From Minisyncoccota bacterium (GTDB taxonomy: Bacteria; Patescibacteriota; Minisyncoccia; Phycocordibacterales; Phycocordibacteraceae), in contig JAGOQE010000002.1 in the NCBI GenBank assembly GCA_017991635.1, positions 35,018-99,017 of the forward strand: a stretch of 64,000 bases of DNA, read 5' to 3'. Positions 20,564 to 32,171 of the stretch are shown piece by piece (the stretch's first letter is position 1; every line of letters starts with the position of its first letter). Made by a program: the position numbers and the translations under genes. The notes below the pieces were generated by a model. That model was not told the origin of the DNA, did no database searches, and saw only the letters and a program-made list of their open reading frames with translations.

Positions 20564-20807
20564 CTGTTGCCGTTTGTAGACCTCACGGGAATCGAAGGAC
20601 GGAGGCCGCGAAGCCTTGCGAAGCAAGTGGCCGAGTCGGGCGTAGATTTTGTTGCGCGTGAGCGAGCTAGAAAATCAAGTGCAAAGCACTGCGAAATTTC
20701 AGCGGAAAATTATCTGTGGTCGATGGGCGCTCGTATTCCACACGAACGCAGTGACTCGGGAATATGCAGTCTCTTCATGAATTCACAGAAATATAAACCA
20801 CAGGCCT

Positions 20808-22931
20808 TTGACGTACAGATCAAATTTTATCCGCTATACTATATCTGTGGAATTTTTCTCGTACATTGGTTTACACACTCTATACTTGCTCGTTTTTTCT
20901 ATTGCCCTCGGGCTCGGTTTGGGTGCGTCTGCGCTGAGCCATATACTTTTTCTTTTTTCAGGTCGTGATCGAACAGTGTCGCGCGACGAGTTTAAATTGT
21001 TGAAAGTGTCGCGCATTGTGGTCTGGGTCGCAATTCTTTTGTATGGGTTTAGTGGACTAGGTCTCTTTACACTTGCGTATGAGTCGATGATTGAGCTTGG
21101 AATTTTTTACGCAAGCCTGACCATCGCAGTGATCCTTATCGGGAATGAAATTGTATTTGCTATGCGTCACCTACCTCGCGTGCGCGATATTCGCGACGGA
21201 AGGATCGCGCTCGATGCACTCGTTTTAGAAAGTGGGGCTGTATCCGCGGTCTCGTGGGTATTTTTAATGTTTCATCACACAATCTACAGGACTGATATAG
21301 GATATTTTGCATTTATGGCGCTTTACGCCGTGGCTATTGCTATTGTTATGCTTTTGACATGGACTGTACGCCGAAGAGATGCGCGCACTCACGACACAAT
21401 AGTGTTGAAGCGGTCAGTTCTTGCCGCTCTTTTTTTCGCACTTGTTTTTGCAGGTGCATGGCTCGCCAAGGCTGACAGCGTTATAAAGCCTGCCGAAATA
21501 GGAAAGCGTCTAGCCACCGAAGTTGTTGGCTCGACTTACACAATTGATGATGTTGCCCTTCATAATAATTCAGAGGATTGTTGGCTCGTCATTGATAGCA
21601 AGGTATTCAACGCGACTGAAGCGTCACGTCTTCATCCTGCAATGTTCAACTGTGGCGAGGAGGTGAGTGAGAATTATCACAAGAACCATGGCGAGGGCAT
21701 CAGAGATAAGATGATGAAGTACTACATAGGCGATCTTCGCAGCGGGAAAGGTGTAACGAATACCGACGCACCCTTCAAGAGGAACGAGACACTCAAACCG
21801 TACCGCGAGTTGTATGTTGACGAAGGATCGTGGAATGCACTTGAATTGATGCTTGTTGTTGAAAAAGATGCCGAGAAGCTCCTTGCTATCGACGGAACGA
21901 CGCACACGGTGATTGGGCGCGTGCACGATGTTGGTTTTCAGCCACACACCTCTGTCTACTCTTCGGATGCAAAATACATGTATATCATTTCTCGGGATGG
22001 ATGGCTCACGAAGATTGACCTAACTACTCTCGAGCCAGTCGCATCAGTGCTCGTAGGTGAGAATTCGCGCGGGACAGCTATCACTGATAACGATAAATAT
22101 GTTGCCATCGGCAATTACAATCCCGGGAATGTTGTTATCCTTGACGCTTCATCGATGGAAATTCTAAAAACTATACCGCTCTCGATGGAAAAGGATGGTA
22201 AACAGATTGAGTCTCGTGCGGGTGCAGTTGTCGAAGATGGAAATCGGATTATTGTTGCGCTTAAAGACGGGACCAGTGTTTGGGCGATAGATACTGACCA
22301 ATCTGGGTTCCCTGTGACGCATAAATTTTCGGACATAGGAGCCGGCAGGCCCGCGCTCCACGACGCCTTTCTCACACCAAATGGCTCGCATTATATTGTT
22401 GCATCGCAAGGATCGAAGACCGCATGGATACTTGATGTGGCGACCATGAAACCAGTTGCGGAGATAGAGACTGGCGATACACCGCACACGGGCCCGGGTG
22501 CTGCTTGGGGTAACTACATTTACATCCCGTCGTTGGGAGAGGGCCTTATTACTGTTATCGATATGACCACATGGAAGCCAGCGAAATATATAAAGACCGG
22601 CGGACCAGGTCTGTTTGTGCGGAGCTACAGTAAGGATCCGACCTATCCATATGTGTGGGCCGACACTGCATTCGGCGATCACAAGGATGAGATTTATGTT
22701 ATTGACGCGCGAGTCAATGAGATCGTGAAAACGATTATTCCGGTTAAGGGCGAAAGTTCGTGGCATCCGGAGTTCACCTATGATGGAAAATTTGTTTACG
22801 TTGTATCTCAATCTGCGAACGAAGTTGAGGTGTACGATGCGTACACCTTTGATATCGTAAAGCGCATTAAATCTGAGACACCTTCAGCGATATCTAACGT
22901 TGGCCTACGAATCGAAGAGCCAGGACTGTAA
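20808..22931 (+). CDS. Membrane-anchored fusion protein: N-terminal polytopic membrane domain, cytochrome b5-like heme-binding domain, C-terminal beta-propeller (YVTN/cd1-like repeats)
   Basis: Several N-terminal TM helices. The middle segment fits the cyt-b5 pattern (LHNNSEDCWLVIDSKVFNATEASRLHPAMF...YHKNHGEG). The C-terminal region has repeated beta-propeller-like blades. Confidence 0.6.
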   Translation: MTYRSNFIRYTISVEFFSYIGLHTLYLLVFSIALGLGLGASALSHILFLFSGRDRTVSRDEFKLLKVSRIVVWVAILLYGFSGLGLFTLAYESMIELGIFYASLTIAVILIGNEIVFAMRHLPRVRDIRDGRIALDALVLESGAVSAVSWVFLMFHHTIYRTDIGYFAFMALYAVAIAIVMLLTWTVRRRDARTHDTIVLKRSVLAALFFALVFAGAWLAKADSVIKPAEIGKRLATEVVGSTYTIDDVALHNNSEDCWLVIDSKVFNATEASRLHPAMFNCGEEVSENYHKNHGEGIRDKMMKYYIGDLRSGKGVTNTDAPFKRNETLKPYRELYVDEGSWNALELMLVVEKDAEKLLAIDGTTHTVIGRVHDVGFQPHTSVYSSDAKYMYIISRDGWLTKIDLTTLEPVASVLVGENSRGTAITDNDKYVAIGNYNPGNVVILDASSMEILKTIPLSMEKDGKQIESRAGAVVEDGNRIIVALKDGTSVWAIDTDQSGFPVTHKFSDIGAGRPALHDAFLTPNGSHYIVASQGSKTAWILDVATMKPVAEIETGDTPHTGPGAAWGNYIYIPSLGEGLITVIDMTTWKPAKYIKTGGPGLFVRSYSKDPTYPYVWADTAFGDHKDEIYVIDARVNEIVKTIIPVKGESSWHPEFTYDGKFVYVVSQSANEVEVYDAYTFDIVKRIKSETPSAISNVGLRIEEPGL

Positions 22932-22981
22932 GTCAGCACACCTCTTGCAATCGGAGCAGACGAAATATTAAACGGTCGAGT

Positions 22982-24004
22982 TTGCATGCTAAAATCCCCT
23001 CAATGCGCCCCCTACGTCTCCGCAAACTCCTCAAACGCAAACTCCCACTCCTCGTCTTCCTCATTCTCCTCGTTGTAGCTTTCTCTGTCGCATTTTATAT
23101 ATACCGAAACTCTCCCGTAGAGCCTCTAAGCCCCGAGGCATACAAAGAACTTGAGGCAAGGCTTGTAACACTTGTTGAGGACGAGGACCCGCGCGTCGCA
23201 CTCCATGCTCTACAAGAAGAAATTGATAGAAGTGAGAGTGTACTTCGCTCATGTCATGGCTTGGTACACGAAATAGGACATGAGGCATATGAGAAATACG
23301 GAGACGTGGCGAAGGCATTTTCATACCGAGACGAAATCTGCGGGGCAGGGTACATACACGGCGTGATTGAGTCCTATATGGATGATAAGGGGTTTGAGGA
23401 GAGTGAACTTTCTTCTATTTGCACTTCGTATAAAGGGGAAGATCGCGATAACTGCTTCCATGGTGTGGGGCATGGACTCATGTTCTATACGAGAAATGAT
23501 GTACCCGCGTCTATAACGTCATGTCATGCACTTACGGACGCGAAAGCACGTATGCGGTGTGCCGAGGGAGTCTTCATGGAGAACTTTGAGAGTGACGATG
23601 TCTTCCACCTCTCTGAGTATGTGGATGATAACGACCTCTTTGGAATTTGCAGGGAACAAAAAGAAATCTATCAAAAGGGTGCGTGTTACTTCTACGCACC
23701 ACTCTTTTATTTGAATGAACATGAGCGGGATTACGCCGACATGTTTGCATTGTGTAGGGAAGCTGAGGCTCCCTATATTTCTACCTGTATAAAAGGTACT
23801 TCAAGTAGGGTCACGAAGGAGAATATTGAACGCCCATCTCTAGTCTCTTCATACTGTATGAAGCAGAAAGGGTATGAGGGTGCGTGCGTTGAGGGAATAG
23901 GAAGTTACTACTATACGCACTACGGCGACACGAAAAAGGTAGAGGAACTCTGCAGTAAGGTTGCAAAGGATTATATGTCTGCCTGTACGAGCACGCTTAA
24001 GTAA
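22982..24004 (+). CDS. Hypothetical membrane-anchored Cys/His-rich repeat protein
   Basis: N-terminal TM followed by about seven spaced C-x-x-G/E-x-x-H/Y units: SCHGLVHEIGH, ICGAGYIHG, NCFHGVGHG, RCAEGVF, GACYFYAPL, TCIKGTS, GACVEGIGSYYY. Confidence 0.5.
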   Translation: MHAKIPSMRPLRLRKLLKRKLPLLVFLILLVVAFSVAFYIYRNSPVEPLSPEAYKELEARLVTLVEDEDPRVALHALQEEIDRSESVLRSCHGLVHEIGHEAYEKYGDVAKAFSYRDEICGAGYIHGVIESYMDDKGFEESELSSICTSYKGEDRDNCFHGVGHGLMFYTRNDVPASITSCHALTDAKARMRCAEGVFMENFESDDVFHLSEYVDDNDLFGICREQKEIYQKGACYFYAPLFYLNEHERDYADMFALCREAEAPYISTCIKGTSSRVTKENIERPSLVSSYCMKQKGYEGACVEGIGSYYYTHYGDTKKVEELCSKVAKDYMSACTSTLK

Positions 24005-24047
24005 AAACAGAAAAGCTCCACCAAAAGGCAAAGCCTTTCCGTAGAGC

Positions 24048-24365
24048 CTAGAAATTCCTGCGTTTTGTTCGTGTCAGTTCAGGCCAGATAGGCAGGCAGA
24101 GGACGACGATGAAAAGGAGAGCAAGGAAGGCAAGCACACTGCTTGTGGTCACGAAATAGTCACGCGGAGAGTGCTTCCAGCCAAGCCAGAAACACACACC
24201 ACAACACAAGGACCAGAAGAGGGAGTACGACCACGCGATGATTCGGTGCTGTGCCTTAGAGGCGCTCATGCGTAAGAGCGCGACTACCACAAAAACGAGA
24301 AAGAAGTTCAGTACAAACACTATAGTCCAAACGAGCACAGGAATGCTGATTCCAGCTTTTTCCAT
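24048..24365 (-). CDS. Hypothetical small polytopic membrane protein
   Basis: Start moved to the internal ATG (MEKAGISIP...), which has a GGAGGA SD 6 nt upstream. The longer GTG-started ORF in the track would overlap the divergent promoter. Confidence 0.5.
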   Translation of the reverse strand: MEKAGISIPVLVWTIVFVLNFFLVFVVVALLRMSASKAQHRIIAWSYSLFWSLCCGVCFWLGWKHSPRDYFVTTSSVLAFLALLFIVVLCLPIWPELTRTKRRNF

Positions 24366-24432
24366 AGCGTTTCCTCCAGTTTCTACCTCTACGCTATGAC
24401 CTAGAAGGCATAAAATCAAGCCCTCTAGGTAC

Positions 24433-24461
24433 TTGACTTTTGACACTATGTGTGATAATAT
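24433..24461 (+). promoter_or_regulatory. Sigma70-like promoter for the GC-rich gene: TTGACT ... TGtGATAAT (extended -10)
   Basis: TTGACT at 24433-24438. TGTGATAAT at 24451-24459 (alternatively read as TAATAT at 24456-24461 with a 17-nt spacer). Sits in an AT-rich 163-bp spacer 70 nt upstream of the 24529 ATG. Confidence 0.4.
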
Positions 24462-24528
24462 ATATGTACGTCAGGAAGGCTGACGAAGTACCTCAACATC
24501 AATCAGTTTACCTCTGGAGACGACCCAC

Positions 24529-25596
24529 ATGACCCAGTCCCAAGAAGCGCGTTTCGACTTCCCGGGTTTCAACCTGGTGAAGACGCAGGACAACGACCGC
24601 CACCAGGTGGAAGTCGGCACGATCGAGGACGGGGACCACGTGTTCACCGTCACCATGATCCGCAGCCAACAGCACCAGTTCCTCCCGTTCGCCATCTCGA
24701 CGGTGGCCGACAAGGACGGCAAAAAGATCTGGACCTTCCAGGGCGCCAAGCACGACGGTGTCGGCCTTCTGGCCTACGCCGGCGATGTGCCCGTCATCGC
24801 GCTCATCACGCGCGGCAAGGATCCCATCGTCGAGCGGGTCATTCCGCTCACTTCCCTGGTCAGCAACAAGCCCGTCGGGCTTCGTGAACTGATCAAGGGC
24901 AAGATGGGCGCCGCCATCGACCTCGACTGCCGCTACCGGCTGACCGAGGACGAGGGGAAGGTCGTCAAGATCGACGAAGGCCGGATGCACGCCGAGATGG
25001 TCCGCAAGGACCGCGAGGCGAGCGAGCGTCGGAACTCGGCCCGCGATGCGGAGAAAATCCGCAGGCAGGAAGAGGCCCGGGCACAAGAGGCGGAGCGCGA
25101 AAAGCGCGTCGCCCTGATCATGATCCGGGAAATCGTCACGGGCTACACCGCCCTGGGCGAACGGCGCTACGGCACTCCGGTCCTCGAGGCCGAGTGGCAG
25201 TCGCTTCCGAACGGCACCTTCGCCATTCTCGTCGACGCCATCGGCGAAGACGGGAAGGTCGGCAAACTGCTCGAAAGCTTCAAGATCGTGAAGCAGGCGG
25301 GCAGGCAACCGATGAAGGTGATGACCAGCCAGCTGGCCGCCAGGCAGGAAGGTCCGACGGAAATTCCGGAGGAGCTTCAGCCCACGGGCACGGTTCTGGT
25401 GGAGATCAAGGACGACTTCTTCAATGTCGGCCTCTACGCCTCCAAGGACCTGATCAACAGGGCCTGGAAGGCCGGTCTCAACGGCGGCGCCTATGTGGCC
25501 GTCGACGACCGTGACGCCGACGGCAAACTGGTCGTCTTCACCGTCACGAAGGAAACCGGCGCCAAGAAGGTCGGCTCCTTCATCCCCCTCGGCTAG
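24529..25596 (+). CDS. Hypothetical protein encoded by a strongly GC-rich (foreign-looking) ORF: two globular regions joined by a highly charged E/R-rich helix
   Basis: 355 aa; GGAG SD 9 nt upstream. The third codon position is almost always G or C (GAC, GGC, CTG, ATC, AAG, CGC...). Followed by a textbook intrinsic terminator. No family recognised. Confidence 0.6.
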   Translation: MTQSQEARFDFPGFNLVKTQDNDRHQVEVGTIEDGDHVFTVTMIRSQQHQFLPFAISTVADKDGKKIWTFQGAKHDGVGLLAYAGDVPVIALITRGKDPIVERVIPLTSLVSNKPVGLRELIKGKMGAAIDLDCRYRLTEDEGKVVKIDEGRMHAEMVRKDREASERRNSARDAEKIRRQEEARAQEAEREKRVALIMIREIVTGYTALGERRYGTPVLEAEWQSLPNGTFAILVDAIGEDGKVGKLLESFKIVKQAGRQPMKVMTSQLAARQEGPTEIPEELQPTGTVLVEIKDDFFNVGLYASKDLINRAWKAGLNGGAYVAVDDRDADGKLVVFTVTKETGAKKVGSFIPLG

Positions 25597-25645
25597 TCCG
25601 AGTACTGCACCTTAGGCCCCACCCAATTGGCCTTTCAAATGGGAA

Positions 25646-25678
25646 CCCCGTAGTCATGCGACTACGGGGTTTTGTTTT
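25646..25678 (+). terminator. Intrinsic terminator of the GC-rich gene
   Basis: Perfect 10-bp stem ccccgtagtc / gactacgggg with an atgc loop, followed by TTTTGTTTT. Confidence 0.7.
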
Positions 25679-25686
25679 ATACAGAG

Positions 25687-25717
25687 CGCCCCTGAAGACC
25701 TTCGGTCTTCAGGGGCG
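25687..25717. other. Second GC-rich hairpin (about 14-bp stem, 3-nt loop) between the convergent genes
   Basis: gcgcccctgaagacc-ttc-ggtcttcaggggcg. No clear T-tract on either strand. Confidence 0.4.
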
Positions 25718-25720
25718 TCT

Positions 25721-26035
25721 TCATTGCAGTGTCTTAAATTTTGTCGGATCAAGACCCGCAAGAACATTTATGGTGTGTTCACCAGGCACGGGCTCTGTGG
25801 GCACGTGAATCAATGCACACTCAGGAGAGAGACAGACGCCATCGCGTAGTTGCGTCAGGCACATAATGGCTCTCTCAAGCATCTCAGTAATGGCGAGAGT
25901 TGAAGCACTTTGAAGGAGGGACTTCTTTGTGCTTGTAATCACTCCGTCATAGATGACGGCACCGAAGCTTGACCCTTCAAATTCAAAGTCAAGAATCCAC
26001 GAGCCAGGTTGGTTCGGAAACAACAGGTCGTTCAT
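25721..26035 (-). CDS. Hypothetical protein (104 aa), downstream of truB on the same strand
   Basis: Host-like composition; no motif recognised. Confidence 0.45.
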   Translation of the reverse strand: MNDLLFPNQPGSWILDFEFEGSSFGAVIYDGVITSTKKSLLQSASTLAITEMLERAIMCLTQLRDGVCLSPECALIHVPTEPVPGEHTINVLAGLDPTKFKTLQ

Positions 26036-26071
26036 GGGTGTCTCCCAAGCAACGTCTAGAAAAACTCTACC

Positions 26072-26881
26072 CTAGGAAAAGCGCTTAAGCCAGAGACGAA
26101 GAAGGGGGAAGTATCTACCAATAGTTGTGCGGTGAATAGAGAGAGCGAGCCCGTTCGTGGCAAGGTTCTCTCCTATTCTTCCTGAAAGCGAACGCATGTA
26201 CGCTCCACTTCCTGAAATTACCCGTATACGAAGAACGGTAAAAGATTCCTGCGACGTAGTGGCAAAAAGTTCATCCCATGACTTCGTGATGGCATCAATT
26301 CTAAAATCGGCACCCAAATGTTTTGAAGGCTCGGTTGTCCGTGGTGTCTTATCCAAATGTTCACGTACACGCTCCATAAGCTCAGCCTTGGTGTAGGTAT
26401 TTCGCTCAATGAGACGAATAGCATAGAAGGCTTCTTGGTGTGTGGGGATGGTGATGTTTGCGAGCGTGCCTTCAAGTGCGTGTAGGAATAATGGCTTACC
26501 TGAAACAGTCTTGGAAGAAAATGCGGGGTAGGGAACTGCATGCACTCCTACAAGTGGTGTGAGCGCTTTGCGAATCTCATCGTCTGACACTGTCACGCCC
26601 TTTCCTTCGTGTGGAAGTCCAAGCACGTCCCCAGTATCGCTCCCGACACCAAGCAGTACTTCTACAATGTATTCCTTATCAAGCTTGGTGAAGTGGCGCT
26701 GGCGCTTGCACGTGTCTCCTACAAGTACGAGAAGCTTCCCGCTTGCCATAGGGTCAAGCCGTCCTGCGTAGGAGAGGCGTGTATCGTCAGGCATGGCGTG
26801 CTTCTCTTTAAGCTTCGTTACTACTTCAAGGGGCGTCTGGCCGACTTCTTTTTCAGCGATGACATAGGGAGGAAGGTTCAT
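26072..26881 (-). CDS. truB: tRNA pseudouridine synthase (TruB-like)
   Basis: Catalytic-Asp motif GRLDPMASG, 269 aa, PUA-less short form. Confidence 0.75.
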   Translation of the reverse strand: MNLPPYVIAEKEVGQTPLEVVTKLKEKHAMPDDTRLSYAGRLDPMASGKLLVLVGDTCKRQRHFTKLDKEYIVEVLLGVGSDTGDVLGLPHEGKGVTVSDDEIRKALTPLVGVHAVPYPAFSSKTVSGKPLFLHALEGTLANITIPTHQEAFYAIRLIERNTYTKAELMERVREHLDKTPRTTEPSKHLGADFRIDAITKSWDELFATTSQESFTVLRIRVISGSGAYMRSLSGRIGENLATNGLALSIHRTTIGRYFPLLRLWLKRFS

Positions 26882-26916
26882 AGGTTCACAGTACGTGCTT
26901 TGTATGAAAAGGAAAA

Positions 26917-26949
26917 GGCCGGTTTGAAAGCTGTGCTTTCAAACCGGCC
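26917..26949 (-). terminator. Intrinsic terminator of the small GC-rich gene (minus strand)
   Basis: Perfect 15-bp stem ggccggtttgaaagc / gctttcaaaccggcc with a 3-nt loop, followed on the minus strand by TTTTCCTTTTC. It ends 35 nt before the truB ATG. Confidence 0.65.
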
Positions 26950-26974
26950 CTGTCGTGTGTCCTGACTTCGGCGC

Positions 26975-27277
26975 TTACTGCACCGTCGCCGGGACTCCCA
27001 GATGACGCTTGATGCGGTCGGCGAGCGTTCTGGACTCACGAGCGATGCCCGTGTAGTGGCAGAACTTGCCGACCTTGGTGATCTCGACCTTGCCGTCCTT
27101 GTGGACGATGTCGAGCGTGCCGCCGTAGACTTCCTGCAGGGCCTCGTAGGCCGAAACGGGAATGGCGCCGGCGCGGTCGGGCATCCAGGCCTTTATGGGA
27201 AGCTCGACCCCCTTGGAGGTGAGTCCCGTAGCCGGCGGCTTCTGGACGACGGCTTCAAAGTCGATATTGCTGGCCAT
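26975..27277 (-). CDS. Hypothetical small protein (100 aa) encoded by a GC-rich ORF
   Basis: AGGGGG SD 6 nt upstream of the ATG. G/C-dominated third codon positions like the 24529..25596 gene. No family recognised. Confidence 0.55.
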   Translation of the reverse strand: MASNIDFEAVVQKPPATGLTSKGVELPIKAWMPDRAGAIPVSAYEALQEVYGGTLDIVHKDGKVEITKVGKFCHYTGIARESRTLADRIKRHLGVPATVQ

Positions 27278-27359
27278 GTGGCCCCCTGTTGAGTGGTTTT
27301 TGAGTTTACTAAAACACCATCATTGGAGCGCACCTTATACTCGATGTGCTTCCTTTACT

Positions 27360-27368
27360 ATTATACCA
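27360..27368 (-). promoter_or_regulatory. Extended -10 promoter element TGgTATAAT (minus strand) for the small GC-rich gene
   Basis: A perfect TATAAT hexamer preceded by TGn on the minus strand, about 83 nt upstream of the ATG at 27277. The surrounding sequence is AT-rich. Confidence 0.45.
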
Positions 27369-27385
27369 TAATTATGAAAAAAGCG

Positions 27386-27421
27386 AAAGGACGGCAACCG
27401 GGGTTAATCGGGCCGTCCTTT
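27386..27421 (-). terminator. Intrinsic terminator of the 27429..27857 gene (minus strand)
   Basis: 10-bp stem aaaggacggc / gccgtccttt, with an inner extension, followed on the minus strand by CGCTTTTTTC. Confidence 0.6.
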
Positions 27422-27428
27422 GCATAGG

Positions 27429-27857
27429 CTAGAAAAGCATTACGCGTTGCCCGCTCTTCTCCTCGCCAAAGAGGCTTGGATCAAGAAGCGTGCGTGACGT
27501 GACTGATTCTGGCGCAGGTGCTCTACGTTGTCTGGCGTAGTGCGCTCTGTTTGAAAACAGTTTGCTCACCGCGGAACTATAGGCATCAAACCTGACGCTG
27601 TCGTTCCTGCACTGCTGAGGCAGGAGTCGAAGCAGCGTTTCGCGCTTGGCCGTGTAGAAACTCTTCGGCCGGCGTCTGTGCTTCGTGTACCAGTGAACAC
27701 CGACAGCGTTCGCGAGTGTGCGAAGCATGTCTGGATCAAGTGTGGCACCCAAAACGACACGCTTATCTTTTCCGCGACCTACTGTGTGATCGCTACTAGC
27801 ATATGCAATTCCCTTGGCCACATCGGCCGTGGAGAAATGCAGAAATGAACTCTCCAA
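27429..27857 (-). CDS. Hypothetical Arg-rich protein (142 aa), TTG start
   Basis: TTG start with an AGGAGG SD 7 nt upstream. Consensus-like promoter upstream and terminator downstream. No family recognised (contains HWYTKHRRRP). Confidence 0.5.
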   Translation of the reverse strand: MESSFLHFSTADVAKGIAYASSDHTVGRGKDKRVVLGATLDPDMLRTLANAVGVHWYTKHRRRPKSFYTAKRETLLRLLPQQCRNDSVRFDAYSSAVSKLFSNRAHYARQRRAPAPESVTSRTLLDPSLFGEEKSGQRVMLF

Positions 27858-27908
27858 CGACGCCTCCTATGGCTACAGGGAAACAAGTATCAATGTTCTT
27901 TGCTCTAA

Positions 27909-27936
27909 ATTCTAGTATATAACTTAGACTTGTCAA
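27909..27936 (-). promoter_or_regulatory. Sigma70-like promoter TTGACA-N16-TAGAAT (minus strand) for the 27429..27857 gene
   Basis: Perfect -35 TTGACA (27931-27936, overlapping the yqeY stop) and -10 TAGAAT (27909-27914). Confidence 0.45.
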
Positions 27937-28388
27937 GCAAGAAGCTTATCAACAACTGCTTTAACGGTTGCACCGTCTGCCTTTCCTTTAAGTTCTTGCA
28001 TAACTGCACTCATAAAACGCCCTGTATCTTTTTTGTCGGTGATACCAAGTTCAGCTTTCTTAGCCTCTGCAATAGGGAAGACCTCTTCCTCGCTCATGAG
28101 TGTGGGGAGATATGCCTCAAGTAGAGCGAGCTCTTCCTTCTCGGGAACTGCAAGCTCATGGCGTCCTGCATTTTCAAACTGTTCTATTGAATCTTTACGC
28201 TGACTTGCGGCACGCTTGATTACAGCAAGCGCTTCCTCATCAGTGAGAAACTCATCGGGCTTGCGCTTCTTTGAGACAACCTCATTCGTCATCATCGTTG
28301 AAAGGGAGCGAAGGGTACGGAGGCGAATGCCGTCACGCGCTTTTAATGCTTCTGGGATACCTTGTTTGATTGATTCGTGTAGCGTCAT
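27933..28388 (-). CDS. GatB/YqeY domain protein
   Basis: About 151 aa of YqeY-like sequence (MTLHESIKQGIPEALKARD...). Start moved to the internal ATG. Confidence 0.7.
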   Translation of the reverse strand: MTLHESIKQGIPEALKARDGIRLRTLRSLSTMMTNEVVSKKRKPDEFLTDEEALAVIKRAASQRKDSIEQFENAGRHELAVPEKEELALLEAYLPTLMSEEEVFPIAEAKKAELGITDKKDTGRFMSAVMQELKGKADGATVKAVVDKLLA

Positions 28389-28427
28389 AGTGAGGTAATC
28401 GTACCACGGCTGATATACTAGCTCTAT

Positions 28428-31112
28428 ATGGATTCCCTGTGGCACTCGTTGAGTGAAGTTGAAACTGCAAATCAACTCAGTACCGATTTAGAGAAGGGAC
28501 TTACGACCCTTGAGGCGGAGCTTCGTCTTAAAGAAGGCACGAACGGTCTCCCAGAGGGAAAGAAAGATACGCTCTTTCTACGTATTCTTAGACAATTTAA
28601 AAGTCCTATTGCTCTCGTTCTCATTCTTGCAGCGCTCGCAACACTTTTCATAAGTCACGTGACTGACGCTGTGGTTATTGCGGTCGCCCTTCTTGTGAAC
28701 GTAATCATCGGCGTCTTTCAGGAGGGAAGGGCAGGCAATGCCTTTAAGAAGCTCAAGGAAAGCTCTGCATCTTTTGCTGTAGTTATCCGCGACGGTAAGA
28801 AGAAAGAGGTGCAAAGCAGGGATGTGGTGCCAGGTGATGTTGTTGTGCTCATGCTTGGTACAAAGGTACCCGCTGATGTCCGGCTCACGGAAGCGCACGG
28901 ACTCTCGCTTCAAGAGGCACAACTAACGGGTGAATGGGTACCGTCAGAGAAGGGAGAGAATGCTGTTCATGCTGAGGCACCACTCGCCGAGCGCAGTTCA
29001 ATGGCGTATGCAGGCTCACTCGTTTCTTCTGGAACTGGACAGGGAATCGTCGTTGCTACAGGTACGAAGACTGAAATTGGTGCTATTGCTAAGGCACTTC
29101 TCACCAGCCAAGAAAGTGAAACACCATTACAGAAAGACTTGGCGAAGATTGCAAACCTTCTTCTCTTCATTAGTGTCATCACGCTTGTTGTTATTTCAGC
29201 ACTCGCACTCATACGTGGAGTGTCGCTTGCTGACACAATGCTCATCGCGATTTCTATTGCCGTGTCGTCTATTCCTGAAGGGTTGCCTGCTGCAGTGACG
29301 GTAGTGCTCGCTCTTGGTATGGAGCGTATTTTGAAATCAGGAGGGCTCGTGCGTTCACTTGTCGCTGCTGAAACTCTGGGTGCGACGAGTGTCATTCTGA
29401 CAGACAAAACAGGAACACTAACTGAAGGCTCGATGCGCGTGTCGGGCGTCATCACGCTTTCTGGAACCACTGAAGAGGTGGCGAGCGAACAAGCTAAAGG
29501 AATTCTTCGAGCAGCACTTCTTGCTACAGAGGGATACCTTGAAGAAAAGGATGGACCTTCACCCGAGGGTGAGACGGTAGTGGCGCACGGTCGACCGGTG
29601 GAACAGGCAGTCATGTTGGCCGCACTTCGTGCTGGAATGTCTGAGAGCGAGTTCCGCGGAAAGTTTCCAAAAATTGACCTTATTCCATTTGCGTCTGAAC
29701 GCCGGTTTGGCGGTTCTCTCGTGCGGGAGGGCGATACGCACATGCTCTATGTCACCGGAGCACCTGAACTACTACTCTCACGCGCCGTGTGCACTAAAGG
29801 GGAAGCGTGTCGCGCACTCGTGAAGGCAGAACATGACGTACTCAATGAGGCGTTGGTGCGTGCTGCTCGTGAGGGAATGCGAGTGCTTGCTGTTGGAGAG
29901 CGCTCGTGGAGAGAACCTGACTTGCCTGAAGGCGAAGAAGAGCGTGATCAATTATTGTCTGAAGTGCACGTTCTCGGGCTTCTCTTGCTCTCAGACCCAA
30001 TTCGCAGTGAGGCACGTCAGGCGGTCGTGAGTATGCAGGAGGCAGGTGCTCGCGTGATTATGCTTACGGGTGACAATCCAGAAACTGCGCTTTGGGCCGC
30101 GCGTCTCACCAACATTGCTCAGGAAGGCGACACTGCGCTTACCGGTGTGGAGATACAGAACCTCTCAGATGAGATGTTGCTTGAAGCACTGCGCACGAAG
30201 AGCGTATTTGCGCGCGTGGCACCTGCCGATAAGATGCGCATTGCGCGTGTTTTGGAGGATGCGGGTGAAGTTGTTGCTATGACTGGAGACGGTGTGAATG
30301 ATGCGCCAGCGCTTCAACAGGCATCTATTGGCGTTGCGCTTGGAAGTGGTACTGATGTCGCAAAGGAAGCTGCTGACATTGTGCTTCTGACAGATAGTTT
30401 CTCCGTAATTACTGTCGCAATCTCAGAGGGGAGACGGCTTCGCGACAATATTAAGAAGATTTTTGTGTACATGCTCTCCACAAACTTTAGCGAGACATTT
30501 CTCATTACCGTTGCACTCTTCTTTGGACTTCCGCTTCCAATTCTTCCAACGCAGATTCTTTGGGCGAATCTTATTGAAGGAGGACTCATGAACGTTGCTC
30601 TTGCCTTTGAGCCCTTGTACCCATCAGCAATGCGTCGCTCGCCCAAGGATGATGAAAATGCCCACGTTATCTCAAAGAATGTACTTAAGCTTATTATCGT
30701 CATTGGTCTTCTTACCGGCCTGCTCTTACTCTCACTCTACTTAGTTCTTCTTGGTATTGAGTTGCCTGAAGGGGAGCTTCAAACAGCAATGTTTGTCGCA
30801 CTCTCACTCTCTTCAGTCTTTGGCGCTTTCTCTATGAAGAGCTTTGGAACACCGCTCTGGCGTCTTAATCCAAAAGGAAATCCGTTTCTTTTGATTTCAC
30901 TTCTCGTGAGTTTCCTCATGCTCGGTGTGGCGCTCTTCGTGCCTCAGGTGTCCATGATTATCAAAACCGTACCGCTTCATGGAGTAACGCTTGCTGCGCT
31001 TGCGGTCGTTGGAGTTCTCAACCTCATCATTATTGAGACGGTTAAGTATCTGCTCTACATTCGTCCTGAGGAAAAGAGAAAGGGCAGGGAAGGTGGTGAA
31101 CCTGTATACTAA
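28428..31112 (+). CDS. P2-type cation-transporting P-type ATPase (Ca2+/Mg2+-like)
   Basis: DKTGTLT phosphorylation motif, TGDGVNDAPAL, PEGLPA in M4, ten TM helices, 894 aa. Confidence 0.88.
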   Translation: MDSLWHSLSEVETANQLSTDLEKGLTTLEAELRLKEGTNGLPEGKKDTLFLRILRQFKSPIALVLILAALATLFISHVTDAVVIAVALLVNVIIGVFQEGRAGNAFKKLKESSASFAVVIRDGKKKEVQSRDVVPGDVVVLMLGTKVPADVRLTEAHGLSLQEAQLTGEWVPSEKGENAVHAEAPLAERSSMAYAGSLVSSGTGQGIVVATGTKTEIGAIAKALLTSQESETPLQKDLAKIANLLLFISVITLVVISALALIRGVSLADTMLIAISIAVSSIPEGLPAAVTVVLALGMERILKSGGLVRSLVAAETLGATSVILTDKTGTLTEGSMRVSGVITLSGTTEEVASEQAKGILRAALLATEGYLEEKDGPSPEGETVVAHGRPVEQAVMLAALRAGMSESEFRGKFPKIDLIPFASERRFGGSLVREGDTHMLYVTGAPELLLSRAVCTKGEACRALVKAEHDVLNEALVRAAREGMRVLAVGERSWREPDLPEGEEERDQLLSEVHVLGLLLLSDPIRSEARQAVVSMQEAGARVIMLTGDNPETALWAARLTNIAQEGDTALTGVEIQNLSDEMLLEALRTKSVFARVAPADKMRIARVLEDAGEVVAMTGDGVNDAPALQQASIGVALGSGTDVAKEAADIVLLTDSFSVITVAISEGRRLRDNIKKIFVYMLSTNFSETFLITVALFFGLPLPILPTQILWANLIEGGLMNVALAFEPLYPSAMRRSPKDDENAHVISKNVLKLIIVIGLLTGLLLLSLYLVLLGIELPEGELQTAMFVALSLSSVFGAFSMKSFGTPLWRLNPKGNPFLLISLLVSFLMLGVALFVPQVSMIIKTVPLHGVTLAALAVVGVLNLIIIETVKYLLYIRPEEKRKGREGGEPVY

Positions 31113-31118
31113 AGCCAT

Positions 31119-32171
31119 ATGGAAGTCTTGCTCATCATTGGTCTTGTTGTCGTAGTTCTGTTGCAGGGTATTGGTATCTTTGTGTTTTTGAAGGGAAGAC
31201 AGGCCCCAAAGGAAGACGGCACGGGGTTAGTGTTGATTCAAAAGCAAATGGAGAATCTTGAACGTTCTCTTGATACGCGTATGGCTGACTCATCTCGTCA
31301 GATGCACGAGACGATGCGTAGTCAGGTTGGAGAATCTACTCGTTTGATTAGAGAGATTACTGAGGAAATTACTTCAGTAAAGGAAATCAGTAGGCAGACT
31401 GGTGAATTTGCAAAGGAACTGCAGTCACTTTCTGACGTGCTTAAAAATCCAAAGCAACGTGGAGTACTTGGTGAGTACTATCTTGAGACGGTGCTTAAAA
31501 ATGTGCTTGCTCCAGGTATGTATCAGATTCAGTATCCGTTCAAAAACGGAGAGATTGTGGATGCGGCAGTCTTTGTGAATGATAAAATCGTACCGATTGA
31601 CTCAAAGTTCTCTCTTGAAAATTACAATCGCTTCATTCATGCAAAGGAGCCTGCAGAGAAGATTGCTCTAGAGAAGGCATTCGTGAATGACCTTAAGATG
31701 CGTATCACAGAAACGGCAAAATACATTCGACCAGAGGAAGGGACTATGGACTTCGCTTTCATGTTTATTCCTTCAGAGGGTATCTACTATGACCTTCTTG
31801 TAAATCAGGTGGGAGCCGGAGAGGACGAGAACCTTATCCAACGAGCAGCAAGTAAGTACAAGGTCATCATCGTGTCACCGACATCATTTCTTGCGTACTT
31901 GCAGACCGTGCTTCAGGGACTTCGCGCTCTTTCAATTGAGCAGAAGGCTGTTGAAATTCAAAAGCGTGTGGGAGAGCTTGGTAAGCACGTGGCAAGTTAC
32001 GAGACGTACTACAAGAAGCTCGGTACTGCTCTTGGTACTGCTGTCTCGCACTACAACACAGGCTATAAGGAACTCGGAAAGATTGATAAGGATGTGTATC
32101 GTATCAGCGAAGAAAAGATTGGAATTGAAGCGGAACTACTCGAGAAGCCATCTGAGGATGATGACGATTAG
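31119..32171 (+). CDS. rmuC: DNA recombination protein RmuC
   Basis: N-terminal TM, coiled-coil and a conserved RmuC C-terminal region. Confidence 0.75.
   Translation: MEVLLIIGLVVVVLLQGIGIFVFLKGRQAPKEDGTGLVLIQKQMENLERSLDTRMADSSRQMHETMRSQVGESTRLIREITEEITSVKEISRQTGEFAKELQSLSDVLKNPKQRGVLGEYYLETVLKNVLAPGMYQIQYPFKNGEIVDAAVFVNDKIVPIDSKFSLENYNRFIHAKEPAEKIALEKAFVNDLKMRITETAKYIRPEEGTMDFAFMFIPSEGIYYDLLVNQVGAGEDENLIQRAASKYKVIIVSPTSFLAYLQTVLQGLRALSIEQKAVEIQKRVGELGKHVASYETYYKKLGTALGTAVSHYNTGYKELGKIDKDVYRISEEKIGIEAELLEKPSEDDDD

Follow-up and report, generated by a model that had tools for sequence, protein, structure and literature searches.

A widespread family of exported helical-repeat proteins with paired cysteines and a putative extracytoplasmic metal redox site

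Helical-repeat proteins hardened by disulfide bonds are known from Helicobacter, where the Sel1-like proteins HcpB and HcpC are secreted and consist of α/α repeats, each helix pair being cross-linked by a disulfide between regularly spaced cysteines. Here we describe a protein of comparable outline, encoded by an open reading frame (ORF) at positions 22982-24004 of a 64,000-nucleotide stretch of Minisyncoccota bacterium DNA (contig JAGOQE010000002.1; the whole stretch is called the window below). With seven cysteine pairs for about eight units, this protein (the query) would also have about one disulfide per helix pair, which is a functional resemblance only; the query family differs from Hcp/Sel1-like proteins in the spacing of its cysteines, in its conserved histidine cluster and in its fusions to electron carriers. 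No Sel1 (PF08238) or TPR-clan profile was found in the query (Pfam scan, E ≤ 1) or among 48 aligned members, and no structural similarity of the query model to solved HcpB or HcpC was found. Generic α-solenoids (PPR, TPR, HEAT/ARM and designed helical repeats) match the model over only three or four units, with whole-chain TM-scores of 0.15-0.28. PPR, TPR, HEAT and ARM solenoids have no sequence relationship to the query family and, unlike it, reside for the most part in the cytoplasm and lack both disulfides and a metal site such as the one proposed below.

Two further systems invite comparison. EfeO, of the EfeUOB iron uptake system, is likewise exported and joins a PF13473 cupredoxin-like domain to an all-helical domain with metal-type ligands, an arrangement seen in fused members of the query family, and a family gene of Gaiellales lies within a suf iron-sulfur assembly cluster. 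However, the query family is rich in His and Met where EfeO is rich in carboxylates, no EfeU/EfeB-type genes were seen in a census of neighbours, and the Peptidase_M75/imelysin profile matched neither the query nor the 48 aligned members; only the architecture is in common. As to ligand sets, hemerythrin uses five His, a Glu and an Asp, and the copper monooxygenases PHM and DBM use His3 and His2Met. The five His, two carboxylates or amides and two Met of the query family, partly arranged as HxxxH and HxxxE on helices, resemble these sets in composition only. The predicted fold is a helix-pair repeat and neither a four-helix bundle nor a β-sandwich, the hemerythrin/HHE profile (PF01814) did not match the query, no other profile linked it to these proteins, and exchange of Glu for Gln is tolerated, many members having Gln at both carboxylate positions. 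Since neither fold nor profiles match, we treat the likeness as an analogy.

The α-solenoid fold class and disulfide-stapled helical repeats are thus already known; what is new is a family that matches none of those profiles or structures. Our preferred reading, which we hold to be evenly balanced between right and wrong, is that its membrane-anchored, outward-facing helical-repeat domain serves as an extracytoplasmic redox domain for a metal, probably copper; we infer both the metal and the reaction.

Paired cysteines, predicted fold and export

The gene has the following features (window positions; residues are counted from the TTG codon).

22982-24004, + strand: whole ORF, 340 amino acids counted from TTG, stop codon at 24002-24004
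23003-23104, + strand: Arg/Lys-rich N-terminus, predicted to be cytoplasmic (MRPLRLRKLLKRK), and single transmembrane anchor (residues ~20-41), from hydropathy and a helix at residues 11-43 of the AlphaFold2 (AF2) model
23123-23233, + strand: cysteine-free N-terminal capping helix pair (residues 48-84) with a conserved DPRxAL motif, from the alignment and the AF2 model
23234-23590, + strand: repeat units 1-4 (residues 85-203), proposed metal or active site, with H92, H96, H126, E130, H160, H164, M167, M199 and E200, and with C91, C120, C147, C158, C181 and C193
23591-23641, + strand: long loop after helix A4 (residues 204-220), which holds H209 and has the lowest model confidence of the ectodomain
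23642-24001, + strand: repeat units 4b-8 (residues 221-340), with cysteine pairs 223/235, 258/269, 292/302 and 324/335 and without conserved His

The query has exactly 14 cysteines, spaced by 29, 27, 11, 23, 12, 30, 12, 23, 11, 23, 10, 22 and 11 residues. In an alignment of 48 homologues that are 35-89% identical to the query, all 14 were invariant, while the mean column identity was 34%, which places the repeat beyond chance. All collected domain copies (595) were then aligned to the family profile for a cysteine census. C91 and C120 were both present in 443 copies and both absent in 152 (from 130 proteins), and not one copy had lost a single member of the pair; in copies devoid of C91 and C120 a replacement pair stands at position 116 (in 96% of them) and position 124 (in 100%). 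Cysteine counts per domain were even in all but three copies, being usually 14, or 10 where the C-terminal units were not reached. Given this strict pairwise loss and replacement and the even counts, the alignments show the cysteines to behave as disulfide partners and not as metal ligands. The most likely map joins C91 to C120; with these two paired, the remaining twelve cysteines fall two by two at distances of 10-12 residues, which suggests the pairs 147-158, 181-193, 223-235, 258-269, 292-302 and 324-335. In this map each bond would staple a short helix, at its end, to the opening turns of the long helix that follows.

Some relatives bring candidate partners for disulfide formation. A gene for DsbB and a weak match to a thioredoxin-like gene lie immediately upstream of, and divergent from, the gene of a 56%-identity relative, and in P0156 (798 amino acids; MES2437165.1; Patescibacteria) a DCC1-like thiol-disulfide oxidoreductase and a multi-transmembrane MauE-like domain are joined to the family domain, a fusion that may represent a built-in disulfide-forming module. 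A role of the cysteines as metal or haem ligands was considered and is very unlikely, in view of their pairwise behaviour and the absence of a CxxCH motif from the query. Within the family this haem-attachment motif is confined to a separate N-terminal domain of the Gaiellales fusions described below.

An AF2 model built from the 48-homologue alignment was all-helical and confident (mean predicted local distance difference test score 92.8, predicted TM-score 0.88). It places the transmembrane helix first, then a cysteine-free helix pair (51-83) and then about eight helix-loop-helix units. In each unit a long helix of ~17 residues starts near the C-x-x-G string and is followed by a helix of ~8 residues that ends at or next to the second cysteine. 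The modelled long helices comprise residues 91-106, 123-136, 152-169, 187-203, 229-246, 263-280 and 299-314, with a final one at 329-335. By the model, the fold class is an α-solenoid of tandem helix-loop-helix units, and as a structural feature the repeat is genuine. Units 4b-8 are probably a structural scaffold.

A first-pass annotation of the same DNA, made from sequence without database searches, had described a single transmembrane segment followed by about seven C-x-x-G-type units with a period of 30-35 residues. The single segment holds, with a helical ectodomain after it, and the seven strings are all present, at residues 90-100, 119-127, 157-165, 192-198, 233-241, 268-274 and 300-311; their cysteines are C91, C120, C158, C193, C235, C269 and C302. 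The period had to be widened slightly, since the strings are spaced by 29-42 residues, and an eighth, partial unit was found at C335. At the sequence level the repeat is weak, although it is evident in the AF2 model: profile-profile matches of unit against unit were mostly in register but low-scoring, the best being units 6 and 7 (E 1e-5, 82% probability) and units 5 and 7 (E 2e-4). The proposal of a disulfide-rich extracytoplasmic repeat protein fared well, being borne out by the even, invariant cysteines, their pairwise loss and replacement, the DsbB or DCC/MauE-like partners of some relatives and the three kinds of export signal described below. A mean-field direct coupling analysis meant to yield contacts between helices picked up mainly gap and subfamily signals and was not used.

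The start codon most likely is the ATG at 23003, which gives a protein of 333 amino acids, because the closest relative, P0001 (88% identity, 333 amino acids), begins at the residue equivalent to M8 of the query (MRPLRLRK...). In the hydropathy profile a single segment, residues ~20-41, stands out as strongly hydrophobic, and the stretch before it is rich in Arg and Lys. Judged by the positive-inside rule, such a layout fits a type-II signal anchor that keeps the N-terminus inside the cell and leaves residues ~45-340 outside. At the same place family members of different lineages use three different export signals, namely a transmembrane anchor in Patescibacteria, an LAAGC lipobox in Gaiellales and, where a cupredoxin is fused, a Sec signal, which supports the extracytoplasmic location.

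Family size and domain fusions

Scans of Pfam-A, NCBIfam, PHROGs and PADLOC left the query without a significant match, nothing significant was found in PDB sequences with either the query or the family profile, and searches of the literature by topic and by motif strings returned nothing relevant. The first-pass annotation could not assign the protein to a known family, and the databases agree. A search of 5.8 billion proteins retrieved 368 full-length relatives, all annotated as hypothetical. An exhaustive profile search of 1.84 billion representatives extended the family to at least 6,830 clusters (50% identity) at E ≤ 1e-3, with 5,281 at E ≤ 1e-10 and 1,112 at E ≤ 1e-30. In a scan of species-representative genomes the family was present in the Patescibacteria classes Andersen-, Doudna-, Kaiser-, Uhr-, Nomura- and Peri-/Peregrinibacteria and Saccharibacteria and also in Rubrobacteraceae, Gaiellales and Methylomirabilota; a second subfamily adds Spechtbacteria, Binatia, Nitrospirales and Cyanobacteria. 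This very large family is without a name, a Pfam model or a solved relative. It is widespread among Patescibacteria, a group whose surface biology is poorly understood; Gaiellales and Rubrobacteraceae are abundant in soils.

Cytochrome c and cupredoxin-like domains were joined to the family domain in separate, independent fusions. Members from Gaiellales and other Actinomycetota have a lipoprotein signal, then a class I cytochrome c with a CxxCH motif (PF13442, E 4.5e-9) and then the family domain; this layout is the hallmark of a clade of at least 1,802 clusters (90% identity) that are annotated only as 'cytochrome c553'. PF13473 (Cupredoxin_1) is fused N-terminally, between two copies or C-terminally, in both subfamilies and in Rubrobacteraceae among others, and the resulting proteins are labelled 'plastocyanin' in the source databases. 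Thousands of such annotations cover only the small fused module and are corrected by the definition of the family. The HWPASxxHPxH-type signature of the fused cupredoxins (P0026, P0033, P0049, P0057, P0122, P0129, P0213 and others) may mark a metal site of its own, rich in His.

Patescibacteria also have giant members of 1,200-3,600 amino acids that carry the domain in tandem, with 5-12 matched stretches each (P0121, P0125, P0144, P0151, P0157, P0233 and P0257). P0121, a Patescibacteria protein of 3,580 amino acids, has 12 such stretches and, at its end, a GH3 glycosidase domain accompanied by LRV/HEAT repeats.

A candidate metal site and competing explanations

Apart from the cysteines, the 48-sequence alignment contains invariant H92, H96, H126, H160, H164, H209, E130, E200, M167 and M199 and several invariant glycines. 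A wider census covered 600 domain copies from both subfamilies, tandem arrays included. H92, H96, H126, H160 and H164 were essentially universal, M167 and M199 nearly so, and at E130 and E200 only Glu or Gln was seen; H209 was conserved in the subfamily of the query only. The motifs are placed as HxxxH on helix A1, HxxxE on A2, HxxxH..M on A3 and M-E on A4, and the conserved His, Met and Glu residues are offset by about +1/+2, +5/+6 and +9/+10 from the cysteine of each long helix. From this helical periodicity, and not from coordinates, we infer that they share one face of four successive long helices (units 1-4).

The query reads H96-E97-I98-G99-H100, so that HEIGH (residues 96-100) could be taken for the HExxH motif of a zincin-type metalloprotease. 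Among 364 copies, Glu occupies position 97 in just 200, and position 100 has His in just 192 and Arg in 104; moreover, there is no match to any peptidase family or fold. With neither the Glu nor the second His conserved, we rejected the protease explanation, which is hardly credible.

For the redox domain that we prefer, the five His together with M167 and M199, and with the E/Q pair, would make up a binding site for one or two redox-active metal ions. We favour copper on three grounds: the residue set is rich in His and Met, the site lies outside the cell and cupredoxin-type domains have been fused repeatedly. Such a site would exchange electrons with a small carrier, which would be the fused cytochrome c in Gaiellales or the cupredoxin-like domain in Rubrobacteraceae and others, and in this genome possibly the protein of the adjacent gene, with cytochrome-b5-like (cyt-b5) and D1-propeller domains. 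The suggestion of a 'metal- or heme-binding' protein in the first-pass annotation therefore survives in part: a metal is plausible in the light of the near-universal His5/Met2 set and the cytochrome c and cupredoxin fusions, whereas cysteine ligands for metal or haem are very unlikely.

Several observations speak against a redox role. The fused cupredoxin has no type-1 Cys ligand and conserves HWPASxxHPxH ... (Y/F)HDH(M/L)xxx(M/L)xG instead; because the Cys is missing, this domain may handle metal rather than carry electrons. Both carboxylates exchange with Gln, so neither E130 nor E200 is indispensable as a ligand or as a catalytic acid. A carrier, whether fused or encoded next to the gene, is missing from most members in Patescibacteria, and gene neighbourhoods are not conserved. 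Since respiratory chains are absent from most Patescibacteria, it is also in doubt where electrons would come from or go to.

Some of these points suit a different function, in which the His5/Met2 set is an extracellular binding site for Cu or Zn that serves to sequester the metal, to deliver it as a chaperone to other envelope proteins or to sense it, the Cys-less cupredoxin being a second metal-binding module. We consider such non-redox metal handling unlikely, but it does accommodate the fused cupredoxin that keeps a conserved His-rich motif while lacking the Cys ligand, the ArsR/SmtB metalloregulator that adjoins a cyanobacterial member, and the tandem arrays of up to 12 matched stretches, which suit a role in capacity or binding. 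It leaves the very stable cytochrome c fusion of Gaiellales unexplained, and the neighbour census showed no enrichment of transporter or efflux genes nearby. The cytochrome c fusion, together with the cyt-b5/D1 neighbour, would instead link the domain to haem proteins, and with invariant His and Met on neighbouring helices one may imagine that His pairs or His/Met on adjacent helices ligate one or two non-covalent haems b, making an extracellular helical cytochrome that relays electrons with its cytochrome c, cupredoxin or cyt-b5 partners. We regard this as quite improbable: no haem-binding family or fold resembles this one, bis-His sites would call for an even number of His rather than five, and most Patescibacteria have no haem synthesis. 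It is also very improbable that there is no cofactor at all and that a His/Glu/Met groove binds or acts on an envelope polymer or peptide, for instance as a peptidoglycan- or glycan-active enzyme or adaptor, with the solenoid as a disulfide-hardened scaffold. The E-to-Q exchange at both carboxylates speaks against acid/base catalysis, five universal His are atypical of a pure binding surface, and the cytochrome c and cupredoxin fusions would be unexplained.

Returning to the extracytoplasmic metal redox domain, a bolder form of it would be an unrecognised class of copper (or iron) redox enzyme built on a disulfide-stapled α-solenoid, with two mononuclear sites or one binuclear site (His3 plus a His2Met-like set) fed by a fused cytochrome c or cupredoxin, oxidase- or monooxygenase-type in its chemistry and located at the cell surface of Patescibacteria and of soil Actinomycetota (Gaiellales and Rubrobacteraceae). 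This is possible but doubtful, and the chance that the scaffold is a genuinely new one for extracytoplasmic metalloenzymes is, similarly, a minor though real one. Should a redox metal be bound, the short list of extracytoplasmic metalloenzyme folds would gain a new scaffold, and an unexpected surface redox activity would be placed in symbiotic, respiration-poor Patescibacteria. Even the most conservative reading leaves a new domain with a clear disulfide map.

Gene neighbourhood

Two features flank the gene in the window.

20808-22931, + strand: upstream gene encoding six transmembrane segments, a cyt-b5-like domain (PF00173, 8e-7) and a cytochrome-D1-type β-propeller (PF02239, 7e-68)
24007-24042, strand not assigned: hairpin of 16 bp flanked by T runs, located after the stop codon and before the convergent ORF 24048-24446 (- strand)

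The upstream gene ends 71 nucleotides before the ATG at 23003, with no predicted promoter or terminator in between. In its product an RRRDAR loop precedes the last of six hydrophobic segments; given this topology, the cyt-b5 and propeller domains should face outward, and the protein is a possible electron-transfer partner of the family domain. The combination of six transmembrane segments, cyt-b5 and D1 propeller is unusual for a Patescibacteria-like genome. The hairpin is likely a bidirectional terminator that closes the transcription unit. Beyond it, the convergent ORF 24048-24446 encodes a small membrane protein and lies between the query gene and a block with a G+C content of 55-59% at 24.0-26.0 kb. 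The placement of the query gene between the cyt-b5 fusion and this GC-rich block, as first annotated, is correct, with the small ORF intervening. The annotation's suggested check for co-occurrence with the cyt-b5 fusion was carried out across relatives and had a negative outcome, the association being found only in the 88%-identical, collinear relative (locus L004).

Positions 20630-32000 of the window are collinear with L004 at 81% identity, and the GC-rich block (~3600-5650 in L004) is not specific to this genome. Its coding strand is ambiguous: a 355-amino-acid ORF (+ strand) overlaps one of 266 amino acids (- strand), and the call in L004 is a 372-amino-acid ORF (- strand).

Conserved neighbours were sought by ORF clustering over 85 loci and the window, 76 of them with a family member, and none was common to more than 6-7 loci, those being close relatives. 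When 117 immediate neighbours, drawn from 68 non-redundant loci, were tallied by Pfam family, no family was enriched, the highest count being 4.

Individual loci have neighbours of their own. In a metagenome-assembled genome of Nitrospirales (L090 7001-9450) the family gene overlaps by 4 nucleotides a 390-amino-acid gene without a Pfam match, whose product is a candidate partner. The cyanobacterial (Pseudanabaenaceae) gene (L089 7001-8506) is followed after 10 nucleotides by an ArsR/SmtB-type HTH_5 regulator, and a DCC1-like thiol oxidoreductase is encoded ~3 kb upstream. In Gaiellales the cytochrome c-fused gene lies inside the suf cluster, on the opposite strand, in the order sufC-sufB-..-sufD / gene / sufS-sufU-Rieske (also in L082-L085); it is divergent from sufS, with a gap to the sufS start of 28 nucleotides (L086 8001-9365) or 23 nucleotides (L087 8001-9374). 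The suf-cluster placement and the ArsR/SmtB neighbour, each a single observation, hint at metals.
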